This document shows, piece by piece, positions 9,521-26,464 of a DNA stretch of 64,000 bases. The stretch comes from Thermoanaerobaculia bacterium (lineage in GTDB: Bacteria > Acidobacteriota > Thermoanaerobaculia > Gp7-AA8): the NCBI GenBank assembly GCA_036261885.1, contig DATAJY010000015.1, positions 274,877 through 338,876 on the forward strand. The letters run 5' to 3'. Position numbers and translations under genes: made by a program. The notes under the pieces are model-generated. The model saw only the letters and a list, made by a program, of their open reading frames with translations. It was not told where the DNA came from and did no database searches. Position 1 is the first letter of the stretch. Each line of letters opens with the position of its first letter.

Positions 9521-12500
9521 CTACTTCATTTCTTTGAGGCGCAGTTGCGCGAGCGCCCACGTCGTTCCCTCGGGCCGGGGCGGTTTCGGGATGTTCCTGT
9601 AGACCTCCGCCGCGGCGTCGAGGATGCCGTAGTTTTCGGCGATGCGTCCGACGACGTACCAGTCGGATGGCGTGAGCTCGTCGGTGTCGAGCTGCTCGAG
9701 GCTCTTGAGCAGCGTATCGCGCGCTTCGGACGAGTTGCCCTGCTCGGCGTAAACGACCGCCAGCGTGTTCAGGATCGCGTAGGAGCTCGGCTCCTGCCCC
9801 GCGGCATGCTGCGCGTGCTCGAGCGCCGTGCCCATCTCCTTCTTCGCGAAAACGGCGGCCCAGGCGTGCTCGTTGTAATCGCTGGCCGTCGCGTTGGCGC
9901 GGTCGAGGACCTGGCTGAAGTACTGCTCGGCATCGGCGTACGCGCCGCGTTCGAGCGCATCGTTGCCGAGCACCTGCAGCGCGGTGATGTCGCCGGGCAT
10001 TTTCTCGAGACGCGCTTTCGCACGCGCGCGCAGTTCATCGCCGCGTTTCAGTTTCGACAGCGATCCCATCGCCGAACCGAAGGCGCGGCCGGAATCGGGA
10101 AAGCGCTCGACGAGACGATCGGCAACTTTGAGCACGTCTTCCCAGCGGTCGAGCACCTGATAGGCGTCGACGAGCGACTGATCGATGCGCCACTGCATGT
10201 CCGGCGACGCGCTCGCGCGCGCCGCTTCGAGCACCGGCAGCGCGAGCTCGGCCGACTTCTTCGTATCCGGCAGCAGCATCGCCGCGGCCAGACGCACTTC
10301 CTCGGCGGTTGCTTCCCTGCCGCGCGTCCAGGTGGCGGCGAACGGATTCGAGCCGACCGGATCGTCGCTGCCGCCGGTGATGTGCTCGCGCGCCCAGTCG
10401 AGCCACTGGCGCGCGGCTGCGACCTCGTTCCTGTCCGCGAGCTTCAGCGCGCGCAGTCCGAACTCCGCGGGTGATTCTCCGGTCGCGGCGACACGGTACT
10501 GGCCGTTCTCGCGCACGACGTATGCGGTGAAATCGCTCTTCACGCCGCCGCCCGGCGCGCGTCCGCGCAGACGGATGCCGACGTTCTCATCGCCGTCCTT
10601 CTGGAACGTGAAGGCGGACATCGCGAAGTCGGCGATCATCTTCGCCTCTTCGTTTCTCTTCTTGAGCGCGCGCTTCACCATCAGCGTGCCGGCGTCGCTG
10701 CTCTGCCGCCGCCGCGCGCGATCGGCTTTTCCTTCGCCGTCGAACACATCGGCGACGTCCGCCGTCGCGTAGCGCTTGTTCAAATCCTCGGAATCGACGT
10801 TGCCGACGAACATGTCGAGGAAGACGTTCTTGAGCAGCGAGGTGGCGTCGTTCGGATCGAGCTTCACGTCCTCGTGGCGCATCGTCTTGCGGATGAGATC
10901 CGCCTGCGCGCGGATCTGGGCCGCATTCGGCGCGCCCTGCGCGGCCGCGCTGAGGAGATCGGCGGCGGCGGGATATTGCCGGAGCAGCATCAGCACGCTG
11001 CCGGCGGTGGTCATCGCCTCGCGTCGCGTGGCCAGCGGGATCTGCGATGCGGCACTCACCGCGGCCGCTCCGCCGTCGCTCGCACCGGCCACCACGAGCT
11101 TGAACGAATCCTTCGCCTGCGTGTCGGTGGTCTCGGACAGCAGCTTCTTCAACTCGTCCCACTTCGCGCGATGCGAGTAGAGCTGCATCAGCTCGCGATC
11201 GATGCCGGCATCGTCGGCTTCTTCGATGTCTTTCTTGAGCGCGAGATATTCGGCGATCGCTTCATCGAGACGGGCAGGGTCGCCGTAGCGTTCCCCGCTG
11301 TCGGAGAACTGCAGCGCGAAGGCGAGCTCGGCCCGGATGTTGATGTCTTTCGGGTCGAGCTCCTTCGCCTTGCGGTATTCGGCGATCGCGCCTTTGAGAT
11401 CGGCGCCGGTGCGCCATGGACGTCCGATCAGATCGTTCGTCAGCACGTACGCGTAGACCGCGTGTGCGCGCGCCGATTTCGGTTCGATCTCCACCGCCTT
11501 CTTCGCCTCGCGGCGCGCGGCGGCGCCGAGACCACCGCTCAGCAGCGTGTGCGCGACGTCGGCGCGATGCAGACCTTCCTTCGGATGGAGCTCGGCGACG
11601 CGGCGGAACTCCGCGACCGCCTGGCCCACTTCCCCGCTTTCGAGGAACTTGCGCCCTTTCTGATCGAAGTAGAAGAGGAAGGCTTTTTCTTCGTTCAGTT
11701 TCACCACCGCTTCGCGCAGCTCTTCGAACTGTGCGGCGGTGATGCGGCGCGGGCCCGAATCCATCTTGTAGTTCGCGACCACGGCGCCGTCGGCGCGCGT
11801 GCTGTAGCTCTTCGTGATCGTGGCGGTGCCGAGCCTGAGCGTCTCGGGCTCGGGGATCTGACGCGGCTCGTAGCCGAGAGGCGGATGAAGAATGTAGGTG
11901 AGCTCGAGGACGTACGGCTTGGCGAACAGGTAGTCGTACTTGCGGGGCTTTCCTTCCGCCTCTTCGCGAGCCTTGGTGCTCTGATGAAAGTCGGACGGCA
12001 GATCGCCGACGAGGCGCGACCAGAAGATGCCGACGGCCGCTTCGCCTTCCGCGGTGACGCCGCGTCCCGCTTCCTTCGATTCGATGGTCAGCACGAACGG
12101 CTTCGCCAGCGCGCGCGAATCACTCTTCTCCCACTTCACGAGCTCCTTGGCGAGGTACGCCTGTTCGACGTACGACTTCATCTGCTCGCCGATGCTCTTG
12201 GTGTCGGTGGTGTTGTAGTAGCGGCGATTGGTCCGCTCGTCGCTGCCGTGGTACTCGTTCGTTTCGATGATCCGCGCCTTGCCGTCCTCGGAGAGGAAGA
12301 ACTCGCGCGTCTCGACGGTGCGATTCGCACTCGCTTCCGCGAGCGGCGTGCGCACCAGCGCGGTGGTGTCGTTCCTGGCGACGAGCACGAGCCGTCCCTG
12401 ATCGGAGTCCGGCAGCTCGCCGGCGCGCGCGAATTCGTCGGTCGGATCGATCCACATGCCGTCGCCGGTCTGGACGATGACGTGATTGAAATGTCCGAGG

Positions 12501-13621
12501 CCGGGGAGCTCTGGCTCGACGTCGAAACCCCAGCCGGAGTTGATCAGCACCGCATGCGCGGGGATGCCGGCCTGGCGCAGCATGGCCACGAGCAGCGTTG
12601 CCTTGTCTTTGCAGTCGCCATACTTGTTGCGCAGCGTCTCGGCCGGCGTGCGCGGGAAGATCGAGCCTTCTCCGAACTCGACGCCGGCGTAGCGGACGTC
12701 GCGCTCGATGGCCGCGAGAATGCGGCGGATTTTCTCCTGCGGCTCTTTCGCGTCGCCGATGGCGGCCGCCGTCGCTTTGGCCACCGAACCGAGGTCGCCG
12801 ATCTTCTCGTCGACGATCTCGCTGTAGCGCTGCGCCACGGTCTGCCACGACCTGCCGGTCGTCCAGGCGACGTACGACTTCGAGTTCACGTCGGGCGGGA
12901 CATACCACTCCATCCGTTCGAGCGCGTTCTGCGGACCGGTCTCGAACAACAGCCGCGTGACGCCGTTCGCTTCGGTGCGCTGCGGCTCGATGCGCGGCTC
13001 GCTCTTGTTCGCGAGCTTCACGTCGAGCGTGGACGGATACTCGAGCACGAGCCTCGACTGGCGTGTCTCGACCCAGCGTCCGAACTGATGGCGATCGGCC
13101 ATGCCGGTGTCGCGCAGCGGGTTCTTGTCGCGATAGGTGATGGTCTGTTCCACGACCGCGCCCGGCGCGACCGCGGGAATCGGTCCGCTGAGAATGCGCG
13201 TGTCGCTGAACATGTCGGGATCGTCTTCGGCATCGCCGGCGCCGAACGATTTCGGATCGAGGCGATGCACCGCGCCGTCGGCCGTGATCACGCGCGCGTC
13301 GACGGTCGGACGCTCGTGATACCACGGCTGCCACGACGTCTCGATCGTGGCCCAGCCATCGACCGCGCTCTCATCGATGACGCGGAAGATCAGTCGCTCG
13401 ACGCGCGTGGCGCGCCCGTCGGCCTCGAAGCGGACGACGTTCTCGTCGAGCAGCACGATCACGCCTTCTTCGGGCTTCTGCGGTTTGATCGATTCCGCGG
13501 CCGCGAGCAGTGCCTTCGGGTCGGACGCGAACGGCGCGCCGTCCCAGACTTCGGCTGCATTCAGGCTGAGGGAAAAAGAAAGAACGACGAGCGCGAGCGC
13601 GCGCGGAAGAAGACGAAACAT
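9521..13621 (-). CDS. Secreted DUF3857/transglutaminase-like cysteine protease-fold protein with extensive TPR region
   Basis: ORF 9521..13912. Start placed at MFRLLPRALALVVLSFSLSLNAAEV (signal peptide; ATG at 13619-13621). Transglutaminase core KYGDCKDKATLLVAMLRQAGIPAHAVLINSGW. The C-terminal half is TPR-like helical repeats. Confidence 0.85.
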   Translation of the reverse strand: MFRLLPRALALVVLSFSLSLNAAEVWDGAPFASDPKALLAAAESIKPQKPEEGVIVLLDENVVRFEADGRATRVERLIFRVIDESAVDGWATIETSWQPWYHERPTVDARVITADGAVHRLDPKSFGAGDAEDDPDMFSDTRILSGPIPAVAPGAVVEQTITYRDKNPLRDTGMADRHQFGRWVETRQSRLVLEYPSTLDVKLANKSEPRIEPQRTEANGVTRLLFETGPQNALERMEWYVPPDVNSKSYVAWTTGRSWQTVAQRYSEIVDEKIGDLGSVAKATAAAIGDAKEPQEKIRRILAAIERDVRYAGVEFGEGSIFPRTPAETLRNKYGDCKDKATLLVAMLRQAGIPAHAVLINSGWGFDVEPELPGLGHFNHVIVQTGDGMWIDPTDEFARAGELPDSDQGRLVLVARNDTTALVRTPLAEASANRTVETREFFLSEDGKARIIETNEYHGSDERTNRRYYNTTDTKSIGEQMKSYVEQAYLAKELVKWEKSDSRALAKPFVLTIESKEAGRGVTAEGEAAVGIFWSRLVGDLPSDFHQSTKAREEAEGKPRKYDYLFAKPYVLELTYILHPPLGYEPRQIPEPETLRLGTATITKSYSTRADGAVVANYKMDSGPRRITAAQFEELREAVVKLNEEKAFLFYFDQKGRKFLESGEVGQAVAEFRRVAELHPKEGLHRADVAHTLLSGGLGAAARREAKKAVEIEPKSARAHAVYAYVLTNDLIGRPWRTGADLKGAIAEYRKAKELDPKDINIRAELAFALQFSDSGERYGDPARLDEAIAEYLALKKDIEEADDAGIDRELMQLYSHRAKWDELKKLLSETTDTQAKDSFKLVVAGASDGGAAAVSAASQIPLATRREAMTTAGSVLMLLRQYPAAADLLSAAAQGAPNAAQIRAQADLIRKTMRHEDVKLDPNDATSLLKNVFLDMFVGNVDSEDLNKRYATADVADVFDGEGKADRARRRQSSDAGTLMVKRALKKRNEEAKMIADFAMSAFTFQKDGDENVGIRLRGRAPGGGVKSDFTAYVVRENGQYRVAATGESPAEFGLRALKLADRNEVAAARQWLDWAREHITGGSDDPVGSNPFAATWTRGREATAEEVRLAAAMLLPDTKKSAELALPVLEAARASASPDMQWRIDQSLVDAYQVLDRWEDVLKVADRLVERFPDSGRAFGSAMGSLSKLKRGDELRARAKARLEKMPGDITALQVLGNDALERGAYADAEQYFSQVLDRANATASDYNEHAWAAVFAKKEMGTALEHAQHAAGQEPSSYAILNTLAVVYAEQGNSSEARDTLLKSLEQLDTDELTPSDWYVVGRIAENYGILDAAAEVYRNIPKPPRPEGTTWALAQLRLKEMK

Positions 13622-13679
13622 CGATTTGGACTCCGGATTTGGGGTTGACCGCCTGGACCTCTGGTCCGGCATGGTAGGG

Positions 13680-14528
13680 CTAGAGCTTCTCTGCCACAAA
13701 TAAAATCGAAGCGGCACGGTGGAGCTCGTCGAATGCCTTTTCGCGCGGCGAGCCGTGAAAATACTTGCGCGGCGCGAGAAAGGGCATGGCCCGCCCGACG
13801 CGATACACGCTTTCGAGCAGCAGCTTCTGCACGCGGGGATAGCGTCCCATTTTCGCCAGCGCGTGCAGCGTGTCGTACGACGACCAGAGCCGCACCACGC
13901 GCAGCCCCGCATCGCGCATCACCTTCATGACGCCGAAGGCGGTGTGATGAAAGTAGGAATCGTGAAACGGCTCGCCCTGCGACACGCCGCCGAAATAGAT
14001 TCCGCCGCCGCGCAGCACGCGCGCCACTTCGCGCACGGCCAGAAACGGGTCGTACAGATGTTCGAGCACGGCGTACGAGAGCACGGCGTCGAACGTCGCA
14101 TCGCCGAAGGGAAGCGCGTGCGCGTCCGCGAGGAGATCGGCCGCGCTGGAGCCGTAATCGATGCCGACGTAATTCGCGCCGATGTGCTGGGCGGGGACGG
14201 CCTGGTCGCGCGGACCGCAGCCGAGGTCGAGCAGATTCATGTTCGGCCGCAGCCACGCGCTCGCGGCGGAGAAGAGCTCGGAGGAGTCGCGTTGCGCGGG
14301 AGGTCCGTCGTAGACCAGAGGCGGACGCTCGATGAGCACGTGGTGCAGATCGTCCGGCGCGCTGGAGCCGATCGAAATCGTCTGCGCCCGCGGTTGCGGA
14401 TTCTGCGGACGAAGGTCGAGCGGCTCCCCATCGGGCACGCGGAAGCCGCACGTGCAGGTAAACGCGAGCTCGAGAGGGCGCTGACAATCCGGACAGGCCA
14501 GATGTCGCTCGAACCACGCGTCGTGCAT
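13680..14528 (-). CDS. SAM-dependent methyltransferase with N-terminal Trm112-like C4 zinc ribbon
   Basis: 282 aa. CPDCQRPLELAFTCTCG zinc ribbon. Motif I LLDLGCGPRDQ. Methyltransf_11-like VLSYAVLEHLYDP. Confidence 0.8.
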   Translation of the reverse strand: MHDAWFERHLACPDCQRPLELAFTCTCGFRVPDGEPLDLRPQNPQPRAQTISIGSSAPDDLHHVLIERPPLVYDGPPAQRDSSELFSAASAWLRPNMNLLDLGCGPRDQAVPAQHIGANYVGIDYGSSAADLLADAHALPFGDATFDAVLSYAVLEHLYDPFLAVREVARVLRGGGIYFGGVSQGEPFHDSYFHHTAFGVMKVMRDAGLRVVRLWSSYDTLHALAKMGRYPRVQKLLLESVYRVGRAMPFLAPRKYFHGSPREKAFDELHRAASILFVAEKL

Positions 14529-14597
14529 GGCGCATTGTGCACCGGGAACGCCGCCGCTCTCAGACGGAAGCAGGACGGGCGGGTTTACACTCCGCGC

Positions 14598-15071
14598 ATG
14601 GATTTCAATCGGATCATCAAAGCGGTCGTGGTCCTCGGCCTCGTGCTGTTCGTCTGGAAAGCGGGGTTGCCGTGGCTGAAGAAGCAGAACTTCGGCGGCT
14701 CCACCGCGTCGAGCAGCGCCACCGGCAGGAGCGGCGCCGAGTCGTCGTGCATTCGCAGCGCGGAGAACGCATCGGGCGCCTGGGGCAACGGCATCGGCCG
14801 CTTCGTGAATCCGCCGTACGACACCAGCGCGTGGGCGAGCTTCCGCTCCGACGTCGAATCGAAGATCGGCAATGCGGAGTCGGCGTGCAGCTGCACGCAG
14901 GAGTCGTGCGAGAAAGTGCGCACCTCGATGCGCGAATTGCGCGGCCTGATCTCCGAGATCGACGGCGCCATCCGCGGGAACGGCTCGTTCCCCGAAGACG
15001 CGGTGGCGCGGCAGGAACGGATCGATACGCTCATCAATGAAGCGGGAGACCTCGTGAGGGCAGGCAAGTAG
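14598..15071 (+). CDS. Small membrane-anchored hypothetical protein
   Basis: In-frame ATG at 14598 inside ORF 13719..15071 (MDFNRIIKAVVVLGLVLFVWKAGLPWLKK). The upstream part of that ORF is antisense to the methyltransferase. The composition looks protein-like rather than shadow-like. Its stop overlaps the GTG start of the next gene. Confidence 0.5.
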   Translation: MDFNRIIKAVVVLGLVLFVWKAGLPWLKKQNFGGSTASSSATGRSGAESSCIRSAENASGAWGNGIGRFVNPPYDTSAWASFRSDVESKIGNAESACSCTQESCEKVRTSMRELRGLISEIDGAIRGNGSFPEDAVARQERIDTLINEAGDLVRAGK

Positions 15072-15814
15072 TGCCGGAGATCGCGAGCCCTCCCGAGCTT
15101 CCGTCTCATCTGCTGCACGGCGTCGGTCCCGGTGATTTCTGGGCCGTCGGCCAGCACACGGTTGGTCTGGTCCGGCAACTCGCGCACCTCGGCGGCGCGA
15201 GCGAGCGCGTGCTCGACATCGGGTGCGGCATGGGCCGCGTGGCCTGGCCGCTCGCGCAGGCGCTCGATGAACGAAGCACCTACGACGGCTTCGACACGCT
15301 TGCGCCGTACGTCGAGGCCTGTCGCGAGCGGCTGGCGTTGAATCCCGAGCGATACCGCTTCCATCACTTCGATCTGCACAGTTCGCTCTACAACCCGAAC
15401 GGCGCGATCCGGTCGGAGGATTTTCACTTTCCGTGGAACGACGGCGCGTTCACGCTCGCCATCGCCACCTCGCTGTTCACGCATCTCACGCCGGCGGCGG
15501 CGACGCACTACCTGCGCGAGATTGCCCGCACGCTCGCGAGGGGCGGCCGGCTTTACGCGACGTTCTTCGTGCTCGACGATCATGCGCGCGAGTTGATGCG
15601 CGAACGTCCGACCGATCCCGACTTTCGTGCGCCGTTCCCCGAGGGGATGTACGCGGATGCGGAGAATCCCGAGGCCGCCGTCGCATTCGATGCGCAGTGG
15701 TTGTTGAAGACGTTTCTCGAGGCCGGCTACAAGATCGAACACTACGCGCCCGGCTACTGGCGGCGCACCGCCGGCGCGGAGTATCAGGATGTCGTCGTGG
15801 CGTCGAAGACGTAG
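15071..15814 (+). CDS. Class I SAM-dependent methyltransferase
   Basis: 247 aa. GTG start. Motif I VLDIGCGMGRVAWPLAQAL. Post-I acidic residue and motif II-like FTLAIATSLFTHL. Confidence 0.8.
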   Translation: MPEIASPPELPSHLLHGVGPGDFWAVGQHTVGLVRQLAHLGGASERVLDIGCGMGRVAWPLAQALDERSTYDGFDTLAPYVEACRERLALNPERYRFHHFDLHSSLYNPNGAIRSEDFHFPWNDGAFTLAIATSLFTHLTPAAATHYLREIARTLARGGRLYATFFVLDDHARELMRERPTDPDFRAPFPEGMYADAENPEAAVAFDAQWLLKTFLEAGYKIEHYAPGYWRRTAGAEYQDVVVASKT

Positions 15815-15822
15815 CTGCGCCG

Positions 15823-18800
15823 TCAGCCGCGTTTCTCGTCGGTCAACGTCGCCAGCGCGGAGACGCTGATGCCTTCGAGCGTCGAGACGAGCGAGCCGAG
15901 ATCCTCGATCTGTTCGAGTCGCGCGATGGCCTGCTTCACGCGTGGATCGGCGACCGCCTTGTAGCTCTTGAAGCGATGGGCCATGAAGCGCAGCAGCGGG
16001 ATGAGCGTGCCGTTGATGAGATACGCCTCGCGCGAGATCAGGCCTGCTTCCTGTTGCGCGGGCGCCGGGGCCGGTGACGCGGCGATCGGGAGTCGCGCCG
16101 CGTGCAGCTCGCGGAGCGCGAGCAGCGTTTCGTCGAGTTTCGCGAGGTAAGGGGTGAGGTCCATCGGCGGCGCCGAGGAGGTCGTGACGGCGATCGTTTC
16201 CTCGAGGCGCGGCGTGCTCTCGAATCCGGCGATCGCTTTGGCGACTTCGCCGATGCGGTCGGAGACGACGCTCAGCTCGGCCATGACGCGCGCGGCAGGA
16301 TCGGCTTCCGTGCCGCCGAGGCGTTGCACGCGCACGAAGCCGCGGCGGATGTCGTCCCAGCGCGCGGTCTGCGTCTCGTTCAGGCGGCCGCGGATCTCGG
16401 CCAGCTTCAACAGGTTCTCTTCGGCACCGGTGGTGAGCGTCTGCGCTTCGCCGAGGTAGTGATCGTCGATCAGACGTTCGAGCTCGGCGTCGTTCATCGC
16501 CGGAAGCACCTTCTCCGCGAGCTTGGACATGTTGCGATACGAGCCCTGCAGCTTGAACGGCGGCTCGGTGCGATAGGCGTTCTGCTGCGCGGCGGAGAGC
16601 ACGTACTGGCGATTGATCCTCGAGAGGAGTTGCTGCACGCGTACCAGGTGACGCATCGTGCCGAGCAGCTCGTTGAGCTCGACGCTCGAGTAGCCGTGCG
16701 CGAGTTGATCGGCCTGAATCGCTTCGCCGCGGGCCATGCGCACCAGTTTGTGCACGTCTTCCGGCTCGCGCGTGAGCAGCGGTGCGGTGATCGGATTCGC
16801 GGTGAGCGCATTTTCGATGTAGCTCAGCTCGAACAGTTCGTCGCGGCCCTGCAGCACTTCGCCGAGGTTGTAGACGTCGGCGCGGTTGGCCAGCATGTCC
16901 GGGATCTCGAACTTCTCACCCGACTCCGTGTACGGATTGCCGGCCATGCAGACCGCGAAGCGTTTGCCGCGCAGGTCGTAGGTCTTCGTCTCGCCGCGCC
17001 AGACGCCTTCGATCTTGCGCTGGGCGTCGCAGAGCGAAATGAATTTCTGGAGGAACTCGGCGTGCGTGTGCTGGATGTCATCGACGTACAACAACACGTT
17101 GTTGGCCATCTCCAGCGCGAGGTTGAGTTTGATGATCTCCTGCCGCGAGGTCGCATTCGGCGCTTCCGCGGGATCGAGCGAACGGACCGAATGTCCTAGC
17201 GCGGGACCGTTGATCTTCACGAACACGAGCCCGAGCCGCTGCGCGATGTACTCCATCAGCGTGGTCTTGCCGTAGCCCGGCGGCGAGACGAGCAGCAGCA
17301 GTCCCATCAGATCGGTCCGTTTTTTCTCGCCCGCCACGCCGATCTGTTTGGCCAGGTTGGCTCCGATCAGCGGCAGGTACACCTCGGAGATCAGTTTGTT
17401 GCGGACGAACGCCGACATGATCTTCGGCTGCAGCTCGCCGAGACGGAGCCGCTTCCGTTCGCGCTCGAGAATGGCCGTGCGCGTCTGCTGATACGCGCGG
17501 AAGCCCGGCACGCGCTGCGCCTGAAACGCCGTCAGCCGCGTCAGGAACTCATCGAGCTGCAGCTCGAGCGCACCGTTGACGACGCGCGGATGCTGCCCGA
17601 GAAGTCCTTCGACGTTTCTCGTGGTCGTCGCGGACGAGACCTCGCGCGAGAGCAATCCGTTCGTGAGGATGTGCGCGGCCGCTTCGATGTCCGGAACGTA
17701 CGCGTGCACGACCGCCCACTGGCGGGGAAGGTCGAGGTCACGCACATCGACGGGGCAGCTCGCCTTGCTCGCTTCCGCGGCGAGAACGAAGCGGATGGGG
17801 GACGTGGCGATTTCCTCGTAGAGGTACTCGCCAGCGCCGGAGATGTTGCCGAGGTCGATGGGAAGCCATCGTTCGATGGCTTCCTGCAGTTCCTGGCGAA
17901 GCGCAACGCCGGCGTCGCTTCCCGGAGCGCCGGCTTCCCAGCCGGCCGGGTCGCCGGCATCCTTGCCGGCTTGAAGCCGGCGGTCCGGCCGGCTTGAAAG
18001 CCGGCGCTCCGAGATGGACGCCAGCGCTCCGCTTTGCGCGGCCCACTGTCCTTTCAACTTCTCATCGTCGAAGAACGCCCAGAACAGCGTGGCTGCCGCT
18101 CTTGCGGCGGGCGTGTATCGCAGCAGCCCGGCGGCGGAGCGCAGCGTCTGGAGCGCGGATGCGATCCGTTCCGCGTCGTGATCGTGCACGCCGCGCTCGT
18201 AGCCTTCGTCGTAGCGTTCGCGGAAATCGCCGCCGGTGAAGGCGAGGTATTCGGCGCGGTAGACGTCTTTCGTTTCGGAGACGAGCTCCTGTTCCCAGAA
18301 GTCTTTCGTCTTCTCGAACTCGGGATCGGTGATCGGCTCGAAGAAGCCGGTACCGGTGATGTGGAGGTGCGGCACACCGTCGCGCGGCACGACCGTCAGC
18401 TCGATCGACTGCGTGTTGACGCTGAAGCGATGCTGACCGAAGCGGACGATGTTCGCGCCCTCTTCGAACAATTCCTTCTTGTCGCGCAGCGTGCGCGCCG
18501 CTTCGTCGCGTGCCGCTTTGAGGCGGCCGTCGATTTCATCGGCGCGGACGATGTCGCCGAGCTCGCGCAGTTTCGCCGAGGTGGAGCGCAGCTTGGCCAC
18601 CATCGCGTCGGAGGCGAAGAACGCGTTCAGCGCATCGACGTCGAGCAGCGTTTCGGCGCGACGGGCGATGCCCTGCAGGATGCGCTCGGCGGCGCTGCTC
18701 AGCTGTTCGGCGCGGCGCTGCCGCTGTTCGAGCAGCGACTGCTTCTTCGCGGAGAATGCCTCGTAGACCTCTTCGCGCTTGGTGGCCAGTTGGGCCGCGA

Positions 18801-20964
18801 AATCATCGAGCTCGCTGAAGCGCGTTTCGAGCTCTTCGAGCTGCAGCATGAGCTTCGAGAGCTCGGCGTCGCAGCGTTCCGGCGTGTCGGCGGAGGAGAC
18901 CGCGTTGGTGACGGTCTGGGTGAAGAGCGCGAACTGCACGCTGAACTCGGCGACGCGTTCTTTCGACAGCAGCTCGCGGCGGCGCTGCGCGACGAGCGCA
19001 CGCACGCGATTGAGCGCGCCGAGGAGCGTGGAGATGCGCTCCAGGATCTGAATGCGCACCGTGGGATCTTCGATCGTCAGCGAGCCGAGGATCTCGGTCA
19101 GCAGATTCAGCGACGCGATGACGCCTTCGCACTCCGCATTCAGCGCCTCGGCCTCGGGCGTTTTGGCAACGGCCGCGATCTTCGATTCGATCGCGCTCAT
19201 CTGCTCCGCGAACGGGGCCAGCGCTTTTTCCTCGAGCAGGAACGTGACCGTGCGCCGCGACAGCTCTTCGAAGCGCTTGACCACCTCCGCTTCGAGCGCG
19301 TCGACCTTCGCACGATCGACGTACCGCAGCTCGCGCATGGAGATGATCTGTCCCTGCTTCGAGCGCAGCGCGGCGAGCTGCTTCACGTATTCATCGATCG
19401 CCTTCGGCTCGTCGCTCTTCGCGTCGAGGGAGCCTTCGACGTCGGCGACGGCCTTTGCCGCCTGCGCGCGCAGCGCTTCGACCTTTTCGAACTCGTCGAT
19501 GATCAGCTCCGCGTTCGCGCGGATCTCCTTCACCGACGACTGCAGCTCTTCCGCTTCCGGGTGGCCGAGCCAGTGATAGGCGTCGAGCGTGCGGGCGGAG
19601 GCGGCGATGAGATCCTCGTACGTCGCGCGCGTCGGGGTCTGGTCGTCGATGAGACGGCAGATCGACAGGGCCGAGGAGAGCCCGCGCACGAGCTCGCGAT
19701 TGCCGATCTTCTCGAGATGCGAATCGGATTTCGGCCGCGTGGCGACGTGATCGTCGCTCATGAACGGCGTCTGCCACACCTGCATGGCGTGCACGCGCGT
19801 CGGCTCGTTGCCGGCGGCCTGGAACACGATCATCTTGCCGTCGGAAAAGAGGCTGAAGCCGTGCACTGTCAGCGGATTCACGACCTCTTTGCGAATGAGG
19901 TTGTACGGAAAGAGGAGCGTGCGTCCCTCGTCGCGGCGATGGAAGACGTACAGGACGTCTTCACCATTCGGCGCGCGGGTGATGCGCATCAGCTCCATCT
20001 CCGCGGGATCGTGCTCGAAGAGCTTCGTCTCGCCGGTGCGCAGCGTGTAGCCGCCCGGAAAGATGATGCCGTGATCTTCCGGCAGCTGGATGCACGCGTA
20101 GCCGATCGCGTCGATGCGCTGCACGCTCTTCACGCGGCGGTTGAAAACGTAGTAGCGCCACGTTTTCTCGCGATACGGCAGGAGCTTGATGAGGATCAGG
20201 CTGCCGACGATGGCGTAGTGGATCTGCGCGTCGTCGAGAGACTGATCGGCATCGTCGACCGGCTCGCTGTAGATGCCTTTGCCGGTCTGGGTGTTGTCTT
20301 CGATCTTGATGGTGACGTCGCCGCCGAGAGTCTCGACGAACACTTCATCGTGGATCGAAACGTGAGGGAAACGTCCGGCCACGTGATCTTCGCGCGTGGT
20401 CTGTGTCCACTCGAAATCATGACGGGGTGGAAAGACGTGATCGCGCTCGCCGCGGTTGTCGACGTAGGTGACGCGGCCGTCGACGCTGACGTTCCAGCGG
20501 AAGACGCGCAGATCGGTCGGTTTGTCGCCGGTCTGAAACACGGCCAGCAGCTTCGCCTCGACGCGCCGCAGCTGCAGGAGCTTCGAATTCTTGTAGTACT
20601 GGTAGAGCTCGCGGAAGTCTTTGAGAAAGACCTCGTCGCGCAGAAAGTTCTCCGGCGAATCGGCCGGCACCGGCGTGATCTCCGCGTCGAAACGATGGAG
20701 CGAGAAGACGTCTTCGATGCGGGTCTCGGTCTTGAGGCCGAGAAAGACGTTGTAGCCGAAGAGCAGGAGACCGCCGACTTCGACGATGTCGCGCGGAACG
20801 CAGTTGTTCTCGGTGCGAATGCGATCGCTGCCGAGGAGCGCCATCTCCGCGCCGCCGAACAGCTCGATGCGCCGCTTGTTGAGCCGCTCCGCCTTCGCCG
20901 CCAGCACCTTCCCGGTGCCGGCCAGCCGCTCGCGGAGAACTTCGTAGGTGCCTTGTTCGATCAT
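15823..20964 (-). CDS. Very large (1713 aa) uncharacterised protein with long coiled-coil region and a C-terminal-half AAA+/MoxR-like P-loop ATPase module; last gene of the NfeD-flotillin operon
   Basis: Single uninterrupted ORF. Walker A LLLVSPPGYGKTTLMEYIAQRLGL. Walker B NNVLLYVDDIQHTH. About 450 aa of heptad-rich sequence in the 480-930 region. The plus-strand 18034..20976 ORF is its shadow. Confidence 0.85.
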   Translation of the reverse strand: MIEQGTYEVLRERLAGTGKVLAAKAERLNKRRIELFGGAEMALLGSDRIRTENNCVPRDIVEVGGLLLFGYNVFLGLKTETRIEDVFSLHRFDAEITPVPADSPENFLRDEVFLKDFRELYQYYKNSKLLQLRRVEAKLLAVFQTGDKPTDLRVFRWNVSVDGRVTYVDNRGERDHVFPPRHDFEWTQTTREDHVAGRFPHVSIHDEVFVETLGGDVTIKIEDNTQTGKGIYSEPVDDADQSLDDAQIHYAIVGSLILIKLLPYREKTWRYYVFNRRVKSVQRIDAIGYACIQLPEDHGIIFPGGYTLRTGETKLFEHDPAEMELMRITRAPNGEDVLYVFHRRDEGRTLLFPYNLIRKEVVNPLTVHGFSLFSDGKMIVFQAAGNEPTRVHAMQVWQTPFMSDDHVATRPKSDSHLEKIGNRELVRGLSSALSICRLIDDQTPTRATYEDLIAASARTLDAYHWLGHPEAEELQSSVKEIRANAELIIDEFEKVEALRAQAAKAVADVEGSLDAKSDEPKAIDEYVKQLAALRSKQGQIISMRELRYVDRAKVDALEAEVVKRFEELSRRTVTFLLEEKALAPFAEQMSAIESKIAAVAKTPEAEALNAECEGVIASLNLLTEILGSLTIEDPTVRIQILERISTLLGALNRVRALVAQRRRELLSKERVAEFSVQFALFTQTVTNAVSSADTPERCDAELSKLMLQLEELETRFSELDDFAAQLATKREEVYEAFSAKKQSLLEQRQRRAEQLSSAAERILQGIARRAETLLDVDALNAFFASDAMVAKLRSTSAKLRELGDIVRADEIDGRLKAARDEAARTLRDKKELFEEGANIVRFGQHRFSVNTQSIELTVVPRDGVPHLHITGTGFFEPITDPEFEKTKDFWEQELVSETKDVYRAEYLAFTGGDFRERYDEGYERGVHDHDAERIASALQTLRSAAGLLRYTPAARAAATLFWAFFDDEKLKGQWAAQSGALASISERRLSSRPDRRLQAGKDAGDPAGWEAGAPGSDAGVALRQELQEAIERWLPIDLGNISGAGEYLYEEIATSPIRFVLAAEASKASCPVDVRDLDLPRQWAVVHAYVPDIEAAAHILTNGLLSREVSSATTTRNVEGLLGQHPRVVNGALELQLDEFLTRLTAFQAQRVPGFRAYQQTRTAILERERKRLRLGELQPKIMSAFVRNKLISEVYLPLIGANLAKQIGVAGEKKRTDLMGLLLLVSPPGYGKTTLMEYIAQRLGLVFVKINGPALGHSVRSLDPAEAPNATSRQEIIKLNLALEMANNVLLYVDDIQHTHAEFLQKFISLCDAQRKIEGVWRGETKTYDLRGKRFAVCMAGNPYTESGEKFEIPDMLANRADVYNLGEVLQGRDELFELSYIENALTANPITAPLLTREPEDVHKLVRMARGEAIQADQLAHGYSSVELNELLGTMRHLVRVQQLLSRINRQYVLSAAQQNAYRTEPPFKLQGSYRNMSKLAEKVLPAMNDAELERLIDDHYLGEAQTLTTGAEENLLKLAEIRGRLNETQTARWDDIRRGFVRVQRLGGTEADPAARVMAELSVVSDRIGEVAKAIAGFESTPRLEETIAVTTSSAPPMDLTPYLAKLDETLLALRELHAARLPIAASPAPAPAQQEAGLISREAYLINGTLIPLLRFMAHRFKSYKAVADPRVKQAIARLEQIEDLGSLVSTLEGISVSALATLTDEKRG

Positions 20965-21100
20965 CGGAATCGGTAGTCGGTTGTCGGTAGTCGGTAGTCG
21001 GTGGTCGGGAGAACGGGTCGTCGCGGACTGCCGGTCGTCGTTACGTCGGGAGGGTGGTGGCCTCCCGACATCCGACTCCCGACAACCGACTACCGATTCA
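20965..21100. repeat. Intergenic inverted-repeat element (CGGTAGTCGG family), copy 2, with nested internal hairpin
   Basis: aatcggtagtcggttgtcg (20967-20985) is the exact reverse complement of cgacaaccgactaccgatt (21081-21099). Internal hairpin tcgggagg-gtggtgg-cctcccga at ~21045-21067. The core gagaacgggtcgtcgcgg resembles the copy-1 core gagaaccgtcctcgcc. Confidence 0.75.
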
Positions 21101-23026
21101 TCAATCCGCCCTCACCACCGGGACCTTGGCGCTCGGGGGTACGACGAGAGGTTCTTCTTTCTCGGGGGCTTTGACGCCGAGGCGGTCGAGGATGGCCTGG
21201 GCGGCGTCGCTTTCGCCGATGAAGTGATCGACGGCTTTGCCGAGGCCGATCGAGTTGACGATGCGGTCGAGGAACTGGCCGTCGCCGCCGACGATGTCGA
21301 TCTTGGCGGTCTTGAGGGCGTCGCCGAGGATCTGCGCTTTTGCTTTCTCGATGTCGAGACGGGCGCGCAGGGCTTCGGTGCCGAGGACGCGCTGGTTTTC
21401 GCTGGTGATGCGGAACTCTTCATGCTCGCGCGATGCAACGTCGAGCAGTTTCATCGCCTCGGCCTTCTTCTCGATGCCGTTCGCCTCGGCGACGAGCTTC
21501 TCCTGAATGCCGGCGGCTTCCGCGAAGGCCTTGTCCCGCAACACCGATGCCTCGGCGGCGCCGACCTTCTGCATCGCCACGGCCTGCGCCTCGCGCACCC
21601 GCACCTGCGCCAGCCCCTGCTTCTCGGTCGCAAGCGCATCCGCTTCCTTCACCTTCGCTTCGGCGAGCCCCGGCGCCGCGCTCTCGGCCTGCAGACCCTC
21701 GGCGGCGCGAATCTTCGCGCGCGCCTCCCGATCGGCGGCTTCCAGTTCCGCTTCCGCGTGCGTGATCCGCTCTTTCGCGCGATGCACGGACGCCTGTTCG
21801 GCGGCTTCCGCGGCCTTGATGTCCTTGACCAGCTTCTCCTGCGCTTCCGCCTCGGCGGCGATGATCACCGCATCGCGATTGCGCTTCGCATCCTCGGTAA
21901 CCTGCACCGTCTTGATGCGCTCCTGCTCCTCGACCACCGAGCGCTCGACGATGACGCGCTCGCGAATCACATCCTGAATGGCCTTGCGCTCCACTTCGAG
22001 CGCCTTCTCTTTCTCGATCCGCGACAGCTCGACGGCCCGCTCGCGCGACACCGCTTCGAGCACGCGGTCTTTCTCGACGCGCTCGGTTTCGATGCCGACC
22101 ACGCGCTCGCGATTCTTCTGCGCCACTTCCACCTGGCGCTGCTTGTTCTGCTCCGCCACCGCGATCTGTTCGTCGCTGGCGATGCGCGCCGTCTCCGCGC
22201 GCAGCTTCTCTTCGGCCTGAATCTTGTGCAGCTCGGCCGCTTCGCGCGCGCGCACCGATTCGATCTCGCGCTGCTGCTTGGCCATCGCATCGGCCTGCTG
22301 GCGCTCGAGCTCGAGAATCGCCTCCGCCGCCTCGACGTCCTGCTTCTTGGTCAGCTTCCGCTCGGTGTTCTGGAACTCGTTCGTCTTGACGTGCTCGGTC
22401 GAGGTCAGGTCCGTGATCTTGCGGATGCCCTGCGCGTCGAGGATGTTCATCGGATCGAGGTTCACGATCGGCGTCTGCTCGAGATAGTCGATGGCCGCGT
22501 CCTCGAGGACGTAGCCGTTCAGGTCGCGGCCGATGAGATTGATGATCGCGTCCCGGAACTCATGGCGCTTCGTGTAGAGATCGACGAAGTCGAGCTGCTT
22601 GCCGACGGTCTTGAGGCCTTCCGAGAACTTCGCGCTGAACAGCGCCTCCAGCGTGTGCGGATCGGAGGCGCGCAGACACCCGATCGACTGCGCGACCTTG
22701 ATCACGTCTTCGACCGTCTTGTTCACGCGCACGAAGAACGTGACCTTGATGTCGGCGCGGATGTTGTCGCGGCAGATGAGGCCGTCCTTCGCGCGGCGAT
22801 CGATCTCGATCGTCTTGACCGAGATGTCCATCACCTCGGCTTTATGGATGATCGGCAGCACCGTCGCGCCGGTGAACGTCACCTCCGGCTCGGCTTTCAT
22901 CTTGTTCACGATCAGCGCCTTGCCCTGTTCGACCTTGCGGTAGAACTTGGCGATCATCACGCCGATGACGAACAACGCCACGACGAGCAGGGCCACTCCG
23001 ACGATCACGGCAACAATCAGGTCCAT
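21101..23026 (-). CDS. Flotillin-family (SPFH/band-7) membrane protein with long Ala/Glu-rich coiled-coil tail
   Basis: 641 aa. N-terminal TM MDLIVAVIVGVALLVVALFVIGVMIA. SPFH core. The ~250-aa EA-rich repeat region is typical of YqiK/FloT-type flotillins. Confidence 0.9.
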   Translation of the reverse strand: MDLIVAVIVGVALLVVALFVIGVMIAKFYRKVEQGKALIVNKMKAEPEVTFTGATVLPIIHKAEVMDISVKTIEIDRRAKDGLICRDNIRADIKVTFFVRVNKTVEDVIKVAQSIGCLRASDPHTLEALFSAKFSEGLKTVGKQLDFVDLYTKRHEFRDAIINLIGRDLNGYVLEDAAIDYLEQTPIVNLDPMNILDAQGIRKITDLTSTEHVKTNEFQNTERKLTKKQDVEAAEAILELERQQADAMAKQQREIESVRAREAAELHKIQAEEKLRAETARIASDEQIAVAEQNKQRQVEVAQKNRERVVGIETERVEKDRVLEAVSRERAVELSRIEKEKALEVERKAIQDVIRERVIVERSVVEEQERIKTVQVTEDAKRNRDAVIIAAEAEAQEKLVKDIKAAEAAEQASVHRAKERITHAEAELEAADREARAKIRAAEGLQAESAAPGLAEAKVKEADALATEKQGLAQVRVREAQAVAMQKVGAAEASVLRDKAFAEAAGIQEKLVAEANGIEKKAEAMKLLDVASREHEEFRITSENQRVLGTEALRARLDIEKAKAQILGDALKTAKIDIVGGDGQFLDRIVNSIGLGKAVDHFIGESDAAQAILDRLGVKAPEKEEPLVVPPSAKVPVVRAD

Positions 23027-23038
23027 TGTTTTTTCTCC

Positions 23039-23677
23039 TTAGCTCTCCGCCTGCGGACGAGGGGCGAGCACGGCGTCTACCTCGGCGATCGACGCGTCGA
23101 TCGGTCCCACGTGGTAGAGCCCTTCATTGGGGTCGTAGTCATAGACGATGGCCTTGCTGCCGACCGTCAGGATGTTCTCGCGGAAGCAGCGCACCTGCGC
23201 AATGTTTCCGCCGATCTCGGCGATGCCGGAGTGATCGTCGACACGCAGCGAGCGAACTTCACAGATTTTCCCGACCAGCTGCGTGTTGTGCGTTCCGCCG
23301 ACCACCTGGAAGAAGCCTTTGAACGGACGGACCGCCACCGCGCCGGCGGCGAGGCCGACGGCACCCGCACCGAGAAAGATCGCGCTGTCGACGAGCAGCG
23401 AGTCGGGAAGAAAGCGGTCGGCGAAGAAGCTCGCCATCCACGCGAAGATCGTGGCCACTCCGGCCACGATCGTGACCGGGATGCTCGACACGCCGAGCAT
23501 CGACAGCGCCCCTTCGAGCACGCTGTCATTCACGTCATCGACGCCGAGCGCGCCATCGAGCCACTCGAAATCGGCCGCGCCGAGCACCGTGGCCAGCGAA
23601 TAAAGCAGAAAAAATCCGAGCAGCACGGTGAAGACAACCGTCGGGAACGCAAGGGCCGCGGAAAAGAAGGCGCTCAT
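23039..23677 (-). CDS. NfeD-like membrane protein (YuaF/YqiJ family) with C-terminal OB-fold
   Basis: 212 aa. Three predicted TM helices, then GKICEVRSLRVDDHSGIAEIGGNIAQVRCF...GSKAIVYDY, a typical NfeD beta-barrel segment. It lies immediately upstream of the flotillin gene, the canonical pairing. Confidence 0.8.
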   Translation of the reverse strand: MSAFFSAALAFPTVVFTVLLGFFLLYSLATVLGAADFEWLDGALGVDDVNDSVLEGALSMLGVSSIPVTIVAGVATIFAWMASFFADRFLPDSLLVDSAIFLGAGAVGLAAGAVAVRPFKGFFQVVGGTHNTQLVGKICEVRSLRVDDHSGIAEIGGNIAQVRCFRENILTVGSKAIVYDYDPNEGLYHVGPIDASIAEVDAVLAPRPQAES

Positions 23678-23836
23678 GGAAGTTGGCTGGATGAAAGTGG
23701 AGATAACTATTTACAGGACGGAACGACGCGCGTCCACAAAAATCGGATCGTAACGTAGGGGCGGCTTCCGGAAGGGTGGTGGGCGAGAGCAGGCCCGGCC
23801 GGCTGGAAGCCGGCGCGACGTTTCTGGAACGCTGCG

Positions 23837-25510
23837 TCAGGAGCAGGGGAGGGAGATTTTTACTTCCACGCCGCTGCCGACGTGGACGGCCAGCTCCTGG
23901 CGCGTGCCGTAGAGGTAGGCCAGTCGGGCGCGCGTCGTGGAGAGGCCGATGCCGTCGCGCCACTGGTCGGGGTCGAGGATCTCGCCGTCGTTCTGTACGG
24001 CGAGCTGCATCGAATCGCCGTGGCGCTCGGCGGTGACGTGGATCCGGCCGCGGCCGTTCGTGCCGAGGATGCCGTGGCGGATGGCGTTCTCGACGAGCGG
24101 CTGCAGCAGGAACGACGGAACGCGGGCATCGAGGAGATCATGCTCGACGTCCATCCGCACATCCAGCGCATCGCGAAAGCGCACCCTCTCGATGTCGATG
24201 TACGCGTTCGTGATCTCCAGCTCTTCGCGCAGCGTCACTTCCTGCGACAGCGAGTCTTCGAACGAGACGCGCAGCAGTCGCCGCAGGCGGTCGATCATCA
24301 ATCGCGCGGCCGGCGGATCGCGCCGCACCAGTGTGAGGATCGAGTTGAGCGTGTTGAAGAGAAAGTGCGGCGCGATGTTCGTTCGCAGCGTGCGCAGTCT
24401 TGCTTCGGCGATGAGGCGCGTGAGGTGGTCGGCGGTGAGGCGGCTGTTGCGTTGCCTCTGCGCGAGCGCATCGAAGCGCACGGCGCAGGTGACGATCGCG
24501 GAGAGGATCAGCGTCGTCGGCAGCGTGCCCCAGCCGCGCATCGCCAGGCCGCCGTTCTCGAGCGGCCGCAGCGCGAGCTCGACCACCGAGGCATGGGCGA
24601 GCCACGCCATCACCAGCACCACGTTCGATTGCACGCGTCGCGCGGGGACGATCACGACGAACGAGAACAATCCGCCGACGGCGTAGGCCGGCAGCACGCG
24701 CGCGAGGAGGAGCCAGTCCTGACCCTCCGTGCGCAGGTTGTCGAGCACGAAAAAGCCGTTCAGCAGAAACGCGAAAACGAAGAAGACGCTCGCGGCGGCG
24801 AAATCGGGCGGAATCACGGAGAGCAGCGGTCGCCGCGGCGCGCGTTTCCTCCGCTCGGTGCGCGGTGCGACCGCCGTGTTGCGGATGCGCTCGAGCTGCG
24901 CGCGCAGCGATGCGGCGAGTTGTTCGAGACGCGACTCGGCCGCCGCGGAATCGCGCTCGAGATCGCTTTCGATGCTCGCCAGCGCGTCGAGAATCGGCTT
25001 TCCTTCGAGCTGGCCGCGGACGGCATCGAAGCTCGCGCGCGCGGCGCGGCTTTCGAGACGCGCCACCGCGAGCTCGGTGCGGCGGGCACGCGCGCGCCGC
25101 CGCTGTACGGCCACCGCCGCGATCATCGCGCCGTACACGAGCAGGTCGAACTTCAGATAGCTCGACCAGAGCGCGCCGAGCTGCGTGAGAAACGGAGCGC
25201 GCGCGCCGAGCAGGCGGCCGAAGAAGATGCAGAGCGTGGTGTGCGTGAGGTTCGTGAGCATCGCGCCGGCGAAGTGAATCGCCGCCGCGCGCATGCGGGT
25301 CGTGCCGTCGATCGGAAAGCGCACGGCCAGCGCGATCACGAACGGCGCGTACAACGCGAACGACGCCCACGCGAACCAGGTGCGCAGCCAGGCGATCGGA
25401 TCTTCGACGAGTGCTTGAATGGCGCTGGGGGTGAGGAGCACCAGCGCCGCGAACAGCGGCATGCCGAGGACGAACAGCCGGAGAAGAGGCCGCAGCGCGC
25501 GCGGAATCAT
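23837..25510 (-). CDS. LytS/YehU-type sensor histidine kinase (multi-TM sensor + His_kinase + HATPase)
   Basis: 557 aa. About 8 TM segments. HFLFNTLNSILTLV (LytS H-box). LLQPLVENAIRHGI (N-box). DGIGLST (G-box). Stop manually confirmed at 23837-23839. Confidence 0.85.
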   Translation of the reverse strand: MIPRALRPLLRLFVLGMPLFAALVLLTPSAIQALVEDPIAWLRTWFAWASFALYAPFVIALAVRFPIDGTTRMRAAAIHFAGAMLTNLTHTTLCIFFGRLLGARAPFLTQLGALWSSYLKFDLLVYGAMIAAVAVQRRRARARRTELAVARLESRAARASFDAVRGQLEGKPILDALASIESDLERDSAAAESRLEQLAASLRAQLERIRNTAVAPRTERRKRAPRRPLLSVIPPDFAAASVFFVFAFLLNGFFVLDNLRTEGQDWLLLARVLPAYAVGGLFSFVVIVPARRVQSNVVLVMAWLAHASVVELALRPLENGGLAMRGWGTLPTTLILSAIVTCAVRFDALAQRQRNSRLTADHLTRLIAEARLRTLRTNIAPHFLFNTLNSILTLVRRDPPAARLMIDRLRRLLRVSFEDSLSQEVTLREELEITNAYIDIERVRFRDALDVRMDVEHDLLDARVPSFLLQPLVENAIRHGILGTNGRGRIHVTAERHGDSMQLAVQNDGEILDPDQWRDGIGLSTTRARLAYLYGTRQELAVHVGSGVEVKISLPCS

Positions 25511-26247
25511 CAGAACGCGCCGAGTCGCTGTTCGAGGTTCAGGCGGAAGCTCGCGGTGAGCCGGAAACTCTCGCCGCCGGCCAGGATCACGAGAAACGTC
25601 TCCTTCGCGTCGCGCCGCAGCTCGGCGATGCGCTCCGCGTTGACGAGCACCGAGCGTTGAATGCGCACGAAACCGTGCGGCGCGAGCCGCTCCTCGAGCG
25701 ACGTCAGCGTCTGGCGGATCATGAACCGCTCGCCGTTGCGATGGATGCGCACGTAGTTGCCGACCGCCTCGATGGCGTCGATCTCCTGCGGCTTCACGAA
25801 GACGATGCGCTCACCCTGGCGGACGACGATCCGGTTCGACGGCTTCGCATCGAGAAATTCGCGCAGTCTCTGCTCGGCCGGCTGGCGCCGCGCGAGTTGC
25901 GATTCCGCGCGCTGCAGCGCCTCCGCGAAGCGCGCGCGCTCGACCGGTTTGAGCAGGTAGTCGACCGCCGCGATCTCGAAGGCGCGCACGGCGTGCTGAT
26001 CGAAGGCGGTGGTGAAGATCACCAGCGGCAGCGGCGTGGTCTCGAGGCACGACAGCACCTCGAATCCATCCATGCCCGGCATGGCGATGTCGAGCAGCAC
26101 GACGTCCGGCAGGAGCGTCTCGATCGCCTGCACCGCCTCGGTGCCGTTCGCCGCCTCGCCCGCGATCGTCACGCGCGCATGCTCCGCCGCGAGCTCTTTC
26201 ATCCGCTCGCGTGCGAGGTATTCGTCGTCGACGATCAGCACTTGCAT
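25510..26247 (-). CDS. LytTR-family response regulator
   Basis: ORF 25510..26442. Start placed at MQVLIVDDEYLARE (reverse-strand ATG at 26245-26247). Receiver D-box LLDIAMPGMDGFEV. C-terminal LytTR DNA-binding domain (IEAVGNYVRIH...). Confidence 0.85.
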   Translation of the reverse strand: MQVLIVDDEYLARERMKELAAEHARVTIAGEAANGTEAVQAIETLLPDVVLLDIAMPGMDGFEVLSCLETTPLPLVIFTTAFDQHAVRAFEIAAVDYLLKPVERARFAEALQRAESQLARRQPAEQRLREFLDAKPSNRIVVRQGERIVFVKPQEIDAIEAVGNYVRIHRNGERFMIRQTLTSLEERLAPHGFVRIQRSVLVNAERIAELRRDAKETFLVILAGGESFRLTASFRLNLEQRLGAF

Positions 26248-26464
26248 GTGGATGGACGGATAGTAGGACCTGTGGACCTGCGCATCCGCAACAAGCACGC
26301 AAACTTGGAGTGCCTCGGCGCCACCCCGCCCGCGGCGGGACGCCGCACTGCTCAGCCGGCGAGACGCCGGCGTTCCTAAGGCATCGCGGAGCGCCGGCGT
26401 CCGCGCCGGCTGAGCACGCGCCGTCTCGGCGCCGGCCCCCACCCGCGGCGTGACGCCGGCGTTC

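Follow-up and report, generated by a model that had tools for sequence, protein, structure and literature searches.

Organization of the locus

We analysed a stretch of 64,000 nucleotides (the window; GC content ~66%) from the genome assembly of a Thermoanaerobaculia bacterium (GCA_036261885.1, contig DATAJY010000015.1, positions 274,877 to 338,876), which carries three co-directional genes for an NfeD-like protein, a flotillin-like protein and an AAA+ ATPase of 1713 aa. Matches to public proteins place it in a metagenome-assembled genome of Thermoanaerobaculia (Acidobacteriota). All three lie on the minus strand. Open reading frames (ORFs) and their translations place the NfeD-like gene first (23039–23677, 212 aa), the flotillin gene second (21101–23026, 641 aa) and the ATPase gene third (15823–20964), in exact agreement with a preliminary description of the window made from its sequence. 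The first two genes are separated by 12 nt and the last two by 136 nt (20965–21100). The operon ends with the ATPase gene, since a methyltransferase gene on the opposite strand (15071–15814, plus strand) converges on it from downstream.

Neither of the two smaller proteins matches a Pfam model, even at E = 10, and for this reason both were compared directly with the products of E. coli yqiJK. The 641-aa protein has one N-terminal transmembrane segment and a long Glu/Ala-rich coiled coil after the SPFH domain. It aligns with E. coli YqiK in BLASTP (28% identity over 452 aa, E 2e–39), and a profile of its family (28 sequences) matches YqiK with an hhalign probability of 99.9% (E 1.7e–32). The homology covers the transmembrane segment, the SPFH domain and the coiled coil; the C-terminal Flot domain (PF15975) was not matched, either by Pfam or in the YqiK alignments, which end at YqiK residue 434 and so take in no more than the first ~29 residues of the Flot domain (406–530). 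Public matches to this protein are named ‘flotillin family protein’ or ‘YqiK’. Judged by these alignments, it is a divergent flotillin of the YqiK type. The 212-aa protein contains three hydrophobic segments (Kyte-Doolittle). Pairwise BLASTP against YqiJ was not significant, and a YqiJ_N Pfam match was obtained for one of 38 members of the family. The family profile (alignment A5), in turn, matches E. coli YqiJ with an hhalign probability of 93.4% (E 2.4e–7), and the alignment spans the second and third hydrophobic segments and the region of the oligonucleotide/oligosaccharide-binding (OB) fold domain of YqiJ. This identifies it, at the level of profile similarity, as a divergent membrane protein of the YqiJ/YuaF type (short NfeD, DUF1449), with a putative C-terminal OB fold.

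Both proteins can thus be assigned by homology, as divergent members, to the SPFH2/NfeD2 pair (YqiK/YqiJ, YuaG/YuaF) of Hinderhofer et al. 2009 (PMC2636767), and the NfeD/flotillin labels of the preliminary description are upheld despite the missing Pfam matches. The arrangement is also that of E. coli yqiJK and B. subtilis yuaFG(floT) (PMC2636767), in which a gene for a short NfeD protein with three transmembrane segments and an OB fold lies directly upstream of a flotillin gene encoding a transmembrane segment, an SPFH domain and a coiled coil. Unlike the window proteins, YqiK and YqiJ match the Pfam Band_7, Flot and YqiJ models, and the C-terminal Flot domain of YqiK has no aligned counterpart in the window flotillin. 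Downstream, E. coli yqiJK has no third gene and is followed by sibD/ibsD, whereas the window has the ATPase gene. The ATPase is mentioned neither by Hinderhofer et al. 2009 (PMC2636767) nor by a 2026 survey of P. aeruginosa SPFH proteins.

Linkage of the ATPase to flotillin and NfeD-like genes

A scan for related loci, with one genome taken per species, found at least 569, of which 80 were kept for study; these represent Acidobacteriota, Myxococcota, Actinomycetota, Gammaproteobacteria and Planctomycetota. In 78 of the 80, which are all the loci with upstream DNA (the remaining two have less than 100 nt of it), the ATPase gene is preceded on the same strand by a flotillin-like gene. In 77 of these 78 the two genes are directly adjacent, and a homologue of the NfeD-like gene occupies the corresponding position in 73 of the 80 loci. 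An unbiased clustering of all flank ORFs yielded only three conserved co-directional families across all sampled phyla: the ATPase and the flotillin, each at 78 loci, and the NfeD-like protein, at 73. An overlap of 4 nt between the stop codon of the flotillin gene and the start of the ATPase gene is seen in many Actinomycetota (for example in loci L012, L013, L014, L020, L023, L024 and L031), and such an overlap is a classic signature of translational coupling. The gene order is also retained in the close relatives of the window locus (L082–L084).

Plasmid records add Bacteroidota (Hymenobacter) and Deinococcota, so that the ATPase family occurs in at least seven phyla. DUF3686, the domain family at its N-terminus, comprises at least 774 clusters at 50% identity, with full-length members of 1590–2036 aa. 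Adjacency to flotillin and NfeD-like genes is the norm for this ATPase family and not a local oddity. The preliminary description had proposed that the ATPase is coupled to the flotillin/NfeD pair, a proposal that would have been contradicted had its homologues elsewhere never been linked to flotillin; the linkage is present in every one of the 78 testable loci. It had also called the arrangement unusual, which does not hold: it is the rule for the family, whose known extent is at least 569 loci in species genomes and 774 clusters.

Architecture of the ATPase

The 1713-aa protein is identical to the public protein P0121, named ‘DNA repair ATPase’; another public label, from the Joint Genome Institute (JGI), is ‘MoxR-like ATPase’. 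No transmembrane segment was found in it, which indicates a soluble protein. Pfam matches comprise DUF3686 (residues 21–464, E 6e–206), DUF7902 (residues 580–664), AAA and AAA_5, the latter two above their cut-offs. Structure prediction supports an architecture in which the head is a β-propeller (DUF3686), the stalk is helical and ~430 aa long, and the AAA+ module is MoxR-like. The DUF3686 region (19573–20904, minus strand) is predicted to consist of an N-terminal helix, a β-propeller-like domain (residues ~42–398) and a helical bundle. It is followed by the helical, coiled-coil stalk (18445–19755, minus strand; residues ~404–840), which includes DUF7902 (18973–19227), and by a conserved middle region without Pfam match (17425–18444, minus strand; residues ~841–1180), in which alignment A1 has invariant motifs, e.g. 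RFSVNTQ and RYDEGYERG.HD.D, as well as a hypervariable loop. A single AAA+ module (16525–17427, minus strand; residues ~1180–1480) precedes a C-terminal region that is all-helical in the AlphaFold2 secondary structure (15826–16524, minus strand; residues ~1481–1713).

The ~450 aa of coiled coil given in the preliminary description roughly fit the stalk. Here Pro and Gly mostly account for at most 7% of each 42-residue block, Ala, Leu and charged residues are frequent, the sequence has helical periodicity, and the predicted model has helices at residues 404–480. A single continuous coil does not follow, since Pro/Gly breaks within the region suggest, from composition and periodicity only, several coiled-coil segments. 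The stalk also gives weak matches of the coiled-coil type to LmuB.

In the AAA+ module, the quoted Walker motifs are present, with SPPGYGKTT at residues 1227–1235 (17260–17286; Walker A GYGKTT) and LLYVDDIQ at residues 1291–1298 (Walker B LLYVDD, 17071–17094). An NP...E.G...P....R motif follows sensor 1 (NP...R motifs at 16876–16947). Walker B has the form hhhhDD instead of hhhhDE, an Asp occupying the position of the catalytic Glu; both D1295 and D1296 are invariant in alignments of 12 and 30 sequences. An AlphaFold2 model of residues 1100–1713 (predicted local distance difference test score, pLDDT, 73) contains one AAA+ α/β core with a lid, followed by the helical C-terminus, which is modelled with moderate-to-low confidence and with disordered linkers. 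The best Foldseek match of the model is the MoxR protein NorQ (E 5.9e–7, template-modelling score 0.59–0.61 normalised to NorQ), followed by RuvB, MCM and CbbQ, of which RuvB and MCM score almost equal to NorQ. A sequence search of solved structures with the ATPase returned P-loop matches only. With its NorQ and CbbQ matches, which stand alongside RuvB and MCM, the module looks MoxR-like, as initially suggested.

Likeness to the MoxR class (NorQ, CbbQ, RavA) extends to the AAA_5 match, the JGI label and the NP...R motif. MoxR proteins are ~300 aa long and are usually paired with a partner carrying a VWA domain. In the window, by comparison, the module is embedded in a protein of 1713 aa and has the DD form of Walker B, and no VWA-type family was found among the conserved neighbours of the ATPase in the clustered flank ORFs.

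The intercistronic hairpin

The 136-nt spacer between the flotillin and ATPase genes (20965–21100, minus strand) consists of inverted arrays of 7-nt units of the CGGTAGT type and folds as a single long hairpin (minimum free energy, MFE, –78.4 kcal/mol, z = –8.3; none of 200 shuffled sequences was as stable). The structured repeat noted earlier at this position is thus real. The CGGTAGT-type motif is matched 14 times in the window, where 0.23 matches are expected. The hairpin is present a second time at 1961–2101 (z –4.2), and the two copies are among the three strongest inverted repeats of the window. The second copy ends ~10 nt before the likely ATG (~2109) of an ORF with a signal-peptide-like N-terminus. 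Beyond the window, the exact 17-mer core of the hairpin can be found in at least 120 stretches of metagenome sequence, 80 of which were fetched; arrays of the hairpin type were present in 8 of these. Neither a U-tract terminator nor a sigma-70-like promoter was found in the spacer; the preliminary description had named a strong terminator/promoter pair there as a sign of an independent transcript. An Rfam scan of 13–27 kb detected no known RNA family, only sub-threshold matches of generic hairpins to microRNA-precursor models.

Two ideas about this element were abandoned. A fixed orientation of the hairpin 5' of start codons was dropped, the palindromic element reading alike on both strands, and a structured spacer as a feature of the family was rejected: the closest relative (L082) has a hairpin of like type in the spacer, but in the next one (L084) a GC-rich palindrome of unrelated sequence is found there, the z-scores of spacers at other loci lie between about +1 and –8, and in Actinomycetota a spacer is lacking altogether. 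We read the hairpin as a lineage-specific repeat insertion outside the conserved system. Repetitive extragenic palindromic (REP)-like intercistronic hairpins tune relative expression in enterobacterial operons; at most, the spacer hairpin might attenuate expression of the ATPase relative to the abundant scaffold protein.

Relation to described operons

An operon of this kind has been described computationally. Ravi et al. 2024 (mSystems; PMC11237479) reported a YqiJ/YuaF transmembrane protein, a Band-7/flotillin protein and an ATPase with β-propeller, coiled coil and AAA+ module encoded together, with some versions of the operon adding a CesT/Tir-PspA dyad and PLD; the neighbourhood of Dokdonia donghaensis IS97_2772 serves as an example, and a matching gene order is given in their Table S3. 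One sentence of that paper states that abbreviated operons lacking PspA are more widespread. The window shares with the published operon the core three-gene order and the domain architectures, its ATPase being predicted to contain the same β-propeller, coiled coil and AAA+ module. The CesT/Tir-PspA dyad belongs to the full form only, and the PLD is optional; the window has neither and corresponds to the abbreviated form.

The published order, with optional PLD, was verified here in Pseudomonas and Hymenobacter. DUF2170 (a CesT/Tir-like chaperone) and PspA/IM30 genes stand in front of the module in 16 of the 80 loci, which are gammaproteobacterial, and a PLD-family gene follows it in nine gammaproteobacterial loci; in Hymenobacter the order is Tir chaperone, PspA, DUF1449, flotillin-like protein, ATPase. 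Since even the PspA-less short form is contained in Ravi et al. 2024 (PMC11237479), the arrangement cannot be called undescribed, as the preliminary description had thought possible. The window locus adds one more member to an operon family that is known from computational work and uncharacterised by experiment; it is nothing new in kind. Our literature search found no other paper that mentions the family and no experimental study of it; the queries DUF3686, PF12458, flotillin with DNA repair ATPase, and YqiK/YqiJ with an ATPase operon returned nothing.

Proposed function and alternative explanations

We consider it fairly probable, from gene context and by analogy, that the module combines a membrane scaffold of the SPFH/NfeD type with an AAA+ remodeller that serves it, and has a role in envelope stress or membrane maintenance. 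The YqiJ-type and flotillin proteins would build a membrane-anchored SPFH/NfeD scaffold facing the cytoplasm; the ATPase, presumably a hexamer, would dock on it via propeller and stalk, and ATP would drive the assembly, disassembly or remodelling of this scaffold or of its clients. The scaffold is suggested because SPFH cages have precedent: those of QmcA-YbbJ and HflK/C-FtsH have been solved, and eukaryotic flotillin forms a cage. The PspA, CesT-like chaperone and PLD genes of extended operons provide a context of membrane stress. For the PspA-associated AAA+, chaperone and Band-7 proteins, a role in sub-membrane assembly or remodelling has been proposed (PMC11237479).

In HflK/C-FtsH, where the AAA+ protease sits inside an SPFH cage, and in the pair of prohibitin and m-AAA protease, an SPFH scaffold and an AAA+ machine work together at the membrane, an analogy that concerns the mode of action only. 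FtsH is an integral membrane protein of the classical AAA clade with a protease domain, whereas the window ATPase is soluble as predicted, is MoxR/RuvB-like, lacks a protease domain and has a putative β-propeller and long stalk; the two share no homology beyond the AAA+ fold. A mechanochemical machine on a flotillin scaffold, as envisaged in the preliminary description, is a reasonable hypothesis. A more specific form of it, which we put forward only tentatively, is that the ATPase is a dedicated motor that docks on a cytoplasmic flotillin-NfeD cage and opens, disassembles or loads it. The role of bacterial flotillins is disputed, and we know of no dedicated energy-consuming partner. The ATPase family, nearly always encoded right after a specialised flotillin/NfeD pair, is an obvious candidate for such a partner. 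If the idea is correct, it would represent an SPFH-associated bacterial remodelling machine, analogous to FtsH in HflK/C or Vps4 on ESCRT-III and evolutionarily distinct from them, and a defined ATP-driven cycle could then be ascribed to bacterial flotillins, on whose biochemical role there is still no agreement. Model organisms in which the family could be studied include Pseudomonas, Streptomyces, Myxococcus, Proteus and Vibrio.

Several points weigh against the scaffold-remodeller proposal. The association of ATPase and flotillin is inferred from gene context and analogy. Both small proteins have diverged beyond the reach of the Pfam models Band_7, Flot, NfeD and YqiJ, and a sequence search of solved structures returned nothing for either of them or for their profiles; because the flotillin family profile matches no solved structure by sequence, cage formation is an assumption. 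The kinetics of hydrolysis are uncertain because Walker B has DD instead of the canonical DE. Hairpins lacking a U-tract are thought to terminate transcription in some GC-rich bacteria; co-transcription is unproven here, because the spacer hairpin could act in this way. Finally, neither PspA nor DUF2170 was detected in the 64-kb window by tblastn with the Pseudomonas proteins (E > 1).

The last point bears equally on a different explanation, in which the ATPase acts mainly on a PspA/ESCRT-III-like polymer in a Vps4-like manner, flotillin and NfeD-like proteins only recruit it, and a PspA encoded elsewhere is the substrate. The PspA/IM30 and CesT-like genes found ahead of the module at 16 of the 80 loci, and likewise in Hymenobacter, speak for it, as does the suggestion of Ravi et al. 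(PMC11237479) that short operons may act with PspA homologues encoded elsewhere. At most loci, however, PspA is not adjacent, including all fetched loci from Actinomycetota, Myxococcota and Acidobacteriota, whereas flotillin is present in 78 of 78 testable loci. The window itself is without PspA, and its AAA+ module resembles MoxR/RuvB and not the classical AAA of the Vps4 type. We regard a primarily PspA-directed ATPase as plausible but rather unlikely. The hairpin, for its part, might split the locus into two transcripts, as a terminator for the first and perhaps as a 5' leader for the second, with the ATPase regulated separately. Its position fits, since this very stable structure starts at the stop codon of the flotillin gene and ends 3 nt short of the ATPase start codon, no Shine-Dalgarno-like sequence was found between it and the ATPase ATG, and the second copy likewise sits just 5' of a likely gene start. 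The lack of a U-tract or promoter-like site in the spacer argues the other way, and the element, being palindromic and repeated, has the appearance of an insertion and not of a dedicated regulator; relatives have an unrelated palindrome or overlapping ORFs in its place. To separate transcription we assign a small probability, and even if it applied here, the functional linkage at the level of the family would be unaffected.

The composition of the module also recalls a conflict system, in which a β-propeller sensor and an AAA+ switch would control a membrane-acting effector against phages. Defence systems often contain large ATPases that have repeat domains as sensors, a PLD gene of the nuclease/phospholipase type occurs in some versions of the operon, and Band-7 proteins take part in some conflict systems (cited in PMC11237479). 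Such a role is nevertheless highly improbable: a PADLOC scan yielded only marginal P-loop and coiled-coil matches (E 5e–4 or weaker) and no matching system, none of the phage records and only 13 of 72,556 plasmid records (mostly megaplasmids or chromids) matched, and the gene order of the module is rigid across phyla while its neighbours vary by locus and include no recurring defence genes. The public name of the ATPase implies yet another function, DNA repair, with the flotillin adjacency arising by chance. In favour of this, Pfam describes DUF3686 as ‘ATPase involved in DNA repair’, NCBI uses the name ‘DNA repair ATPase’, and there are weak matches to RuvB_N and RuvB. Yet the RuvB matches cover only the generic P-loop (residues ~1182–1285) and reach 15–24 bits versus family cut-offs of 282–299 bits, neither a DNA-binding nor a nuclease domain was found among the Pfam and profile matches of the ATPase, the conserved neighbours are membrane proteins, and the literature search found no paper using DUF3686 or PF12458 or tying the family to repair. 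We give this explanation almost no credence, and the public name is probably misleading. Our guess is that it stems from a coiled-coil resemblance to proteins of the SMC/Rad50 type (compare the weak LmuB matches). The two names have been carried over to hundreds of proteins, and we found no support for them.

Neighbouring genes and other repeats

The genes immediately upstream of the module share its strand, are separated from the NfeD-like gene by a 159-nt spacer, and encode a LytS-type histidine kinase (His_kinase and HATPase_c) and a LytTR response regulator (23837–26442, minus strand). A LytS/LytTR pair is also present in the Hymenobacter plasmid locus (L205, 11891–13358), where it is directly downstream of the module and convergent. 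As a conserved partner the pair was rejected, since it recurs only in that plasmid locus among ~85 loci, the other ~83, close relatives included, being without it; the system may be an occasional regulator of the module.

Downstream of the ATPase gene, the minus-strand ORFs 14585–15742 and 13561–14535 were considered as fourth and fifth genes of the operon and rejected. They have no Pfam match, are kept in no related locus and are unlike the ORFs downstream in L082; the true gene at this place is the convergent methyltransferase on the plus strand. A few kb downstream of the ATPase, a further gene (9521–13912, minus strand) encodes a protein of 1463 aa that contains DUF3857, a transglutaminase core and TPR repeats. 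In L082 and L084 it keeps its synteny with the module; in other phyla it does not.

The strongest inverted repeat of the window lies within the ATPase gene. It is a GC-rich near-perfect palindrome (17899–18035, minus strand; residues ~977–1022) that forms a hairpin of ~130 nt (MFE –123.5 kcal/mol, z –10.2) in the region encoding the hypervariable loop. The palindrome represents an in-frame insertion of ~25 codons (RPDRRLQAGKDAGDPAGWEAGAPGS, residues ~992–1016), which is missing from distant homologues, and close relatives have different low-complexity insertions at the identical site. In-frame insertions of palindromic elements are known from Rickettsia, and the element recalls them. At another site, the related protein P0128 has a low-complexity insertion of ~34 aa (VIPSVSRGTWGVGGALSVPTTLNVPRTHPGPSTH; alignment A2, columns ~922–955), which may be a second in-frame insertion of a repeat element.

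An AT-rich hairpin at 32232–32322, built of inverted 7-nt arrays (ATTGAGG/ATTGAGA/ATTGAAA), is similar in design to the flotillin-ATPase spacer and unrelated to it in sequence. GC-rich palindromic units of the form GGAGCGCCGGC-TTCA-GCCGGC recur in L084 (5918–6000) and in the window (23790–23815 and 26389–26410). They are found in the flotillin-ATPase spacer of L084, in the spacer upstream of the NfeD-like gene and in the insertion within the ATPase gene, which suggests that these genomes have a family of small palindromic repeats.

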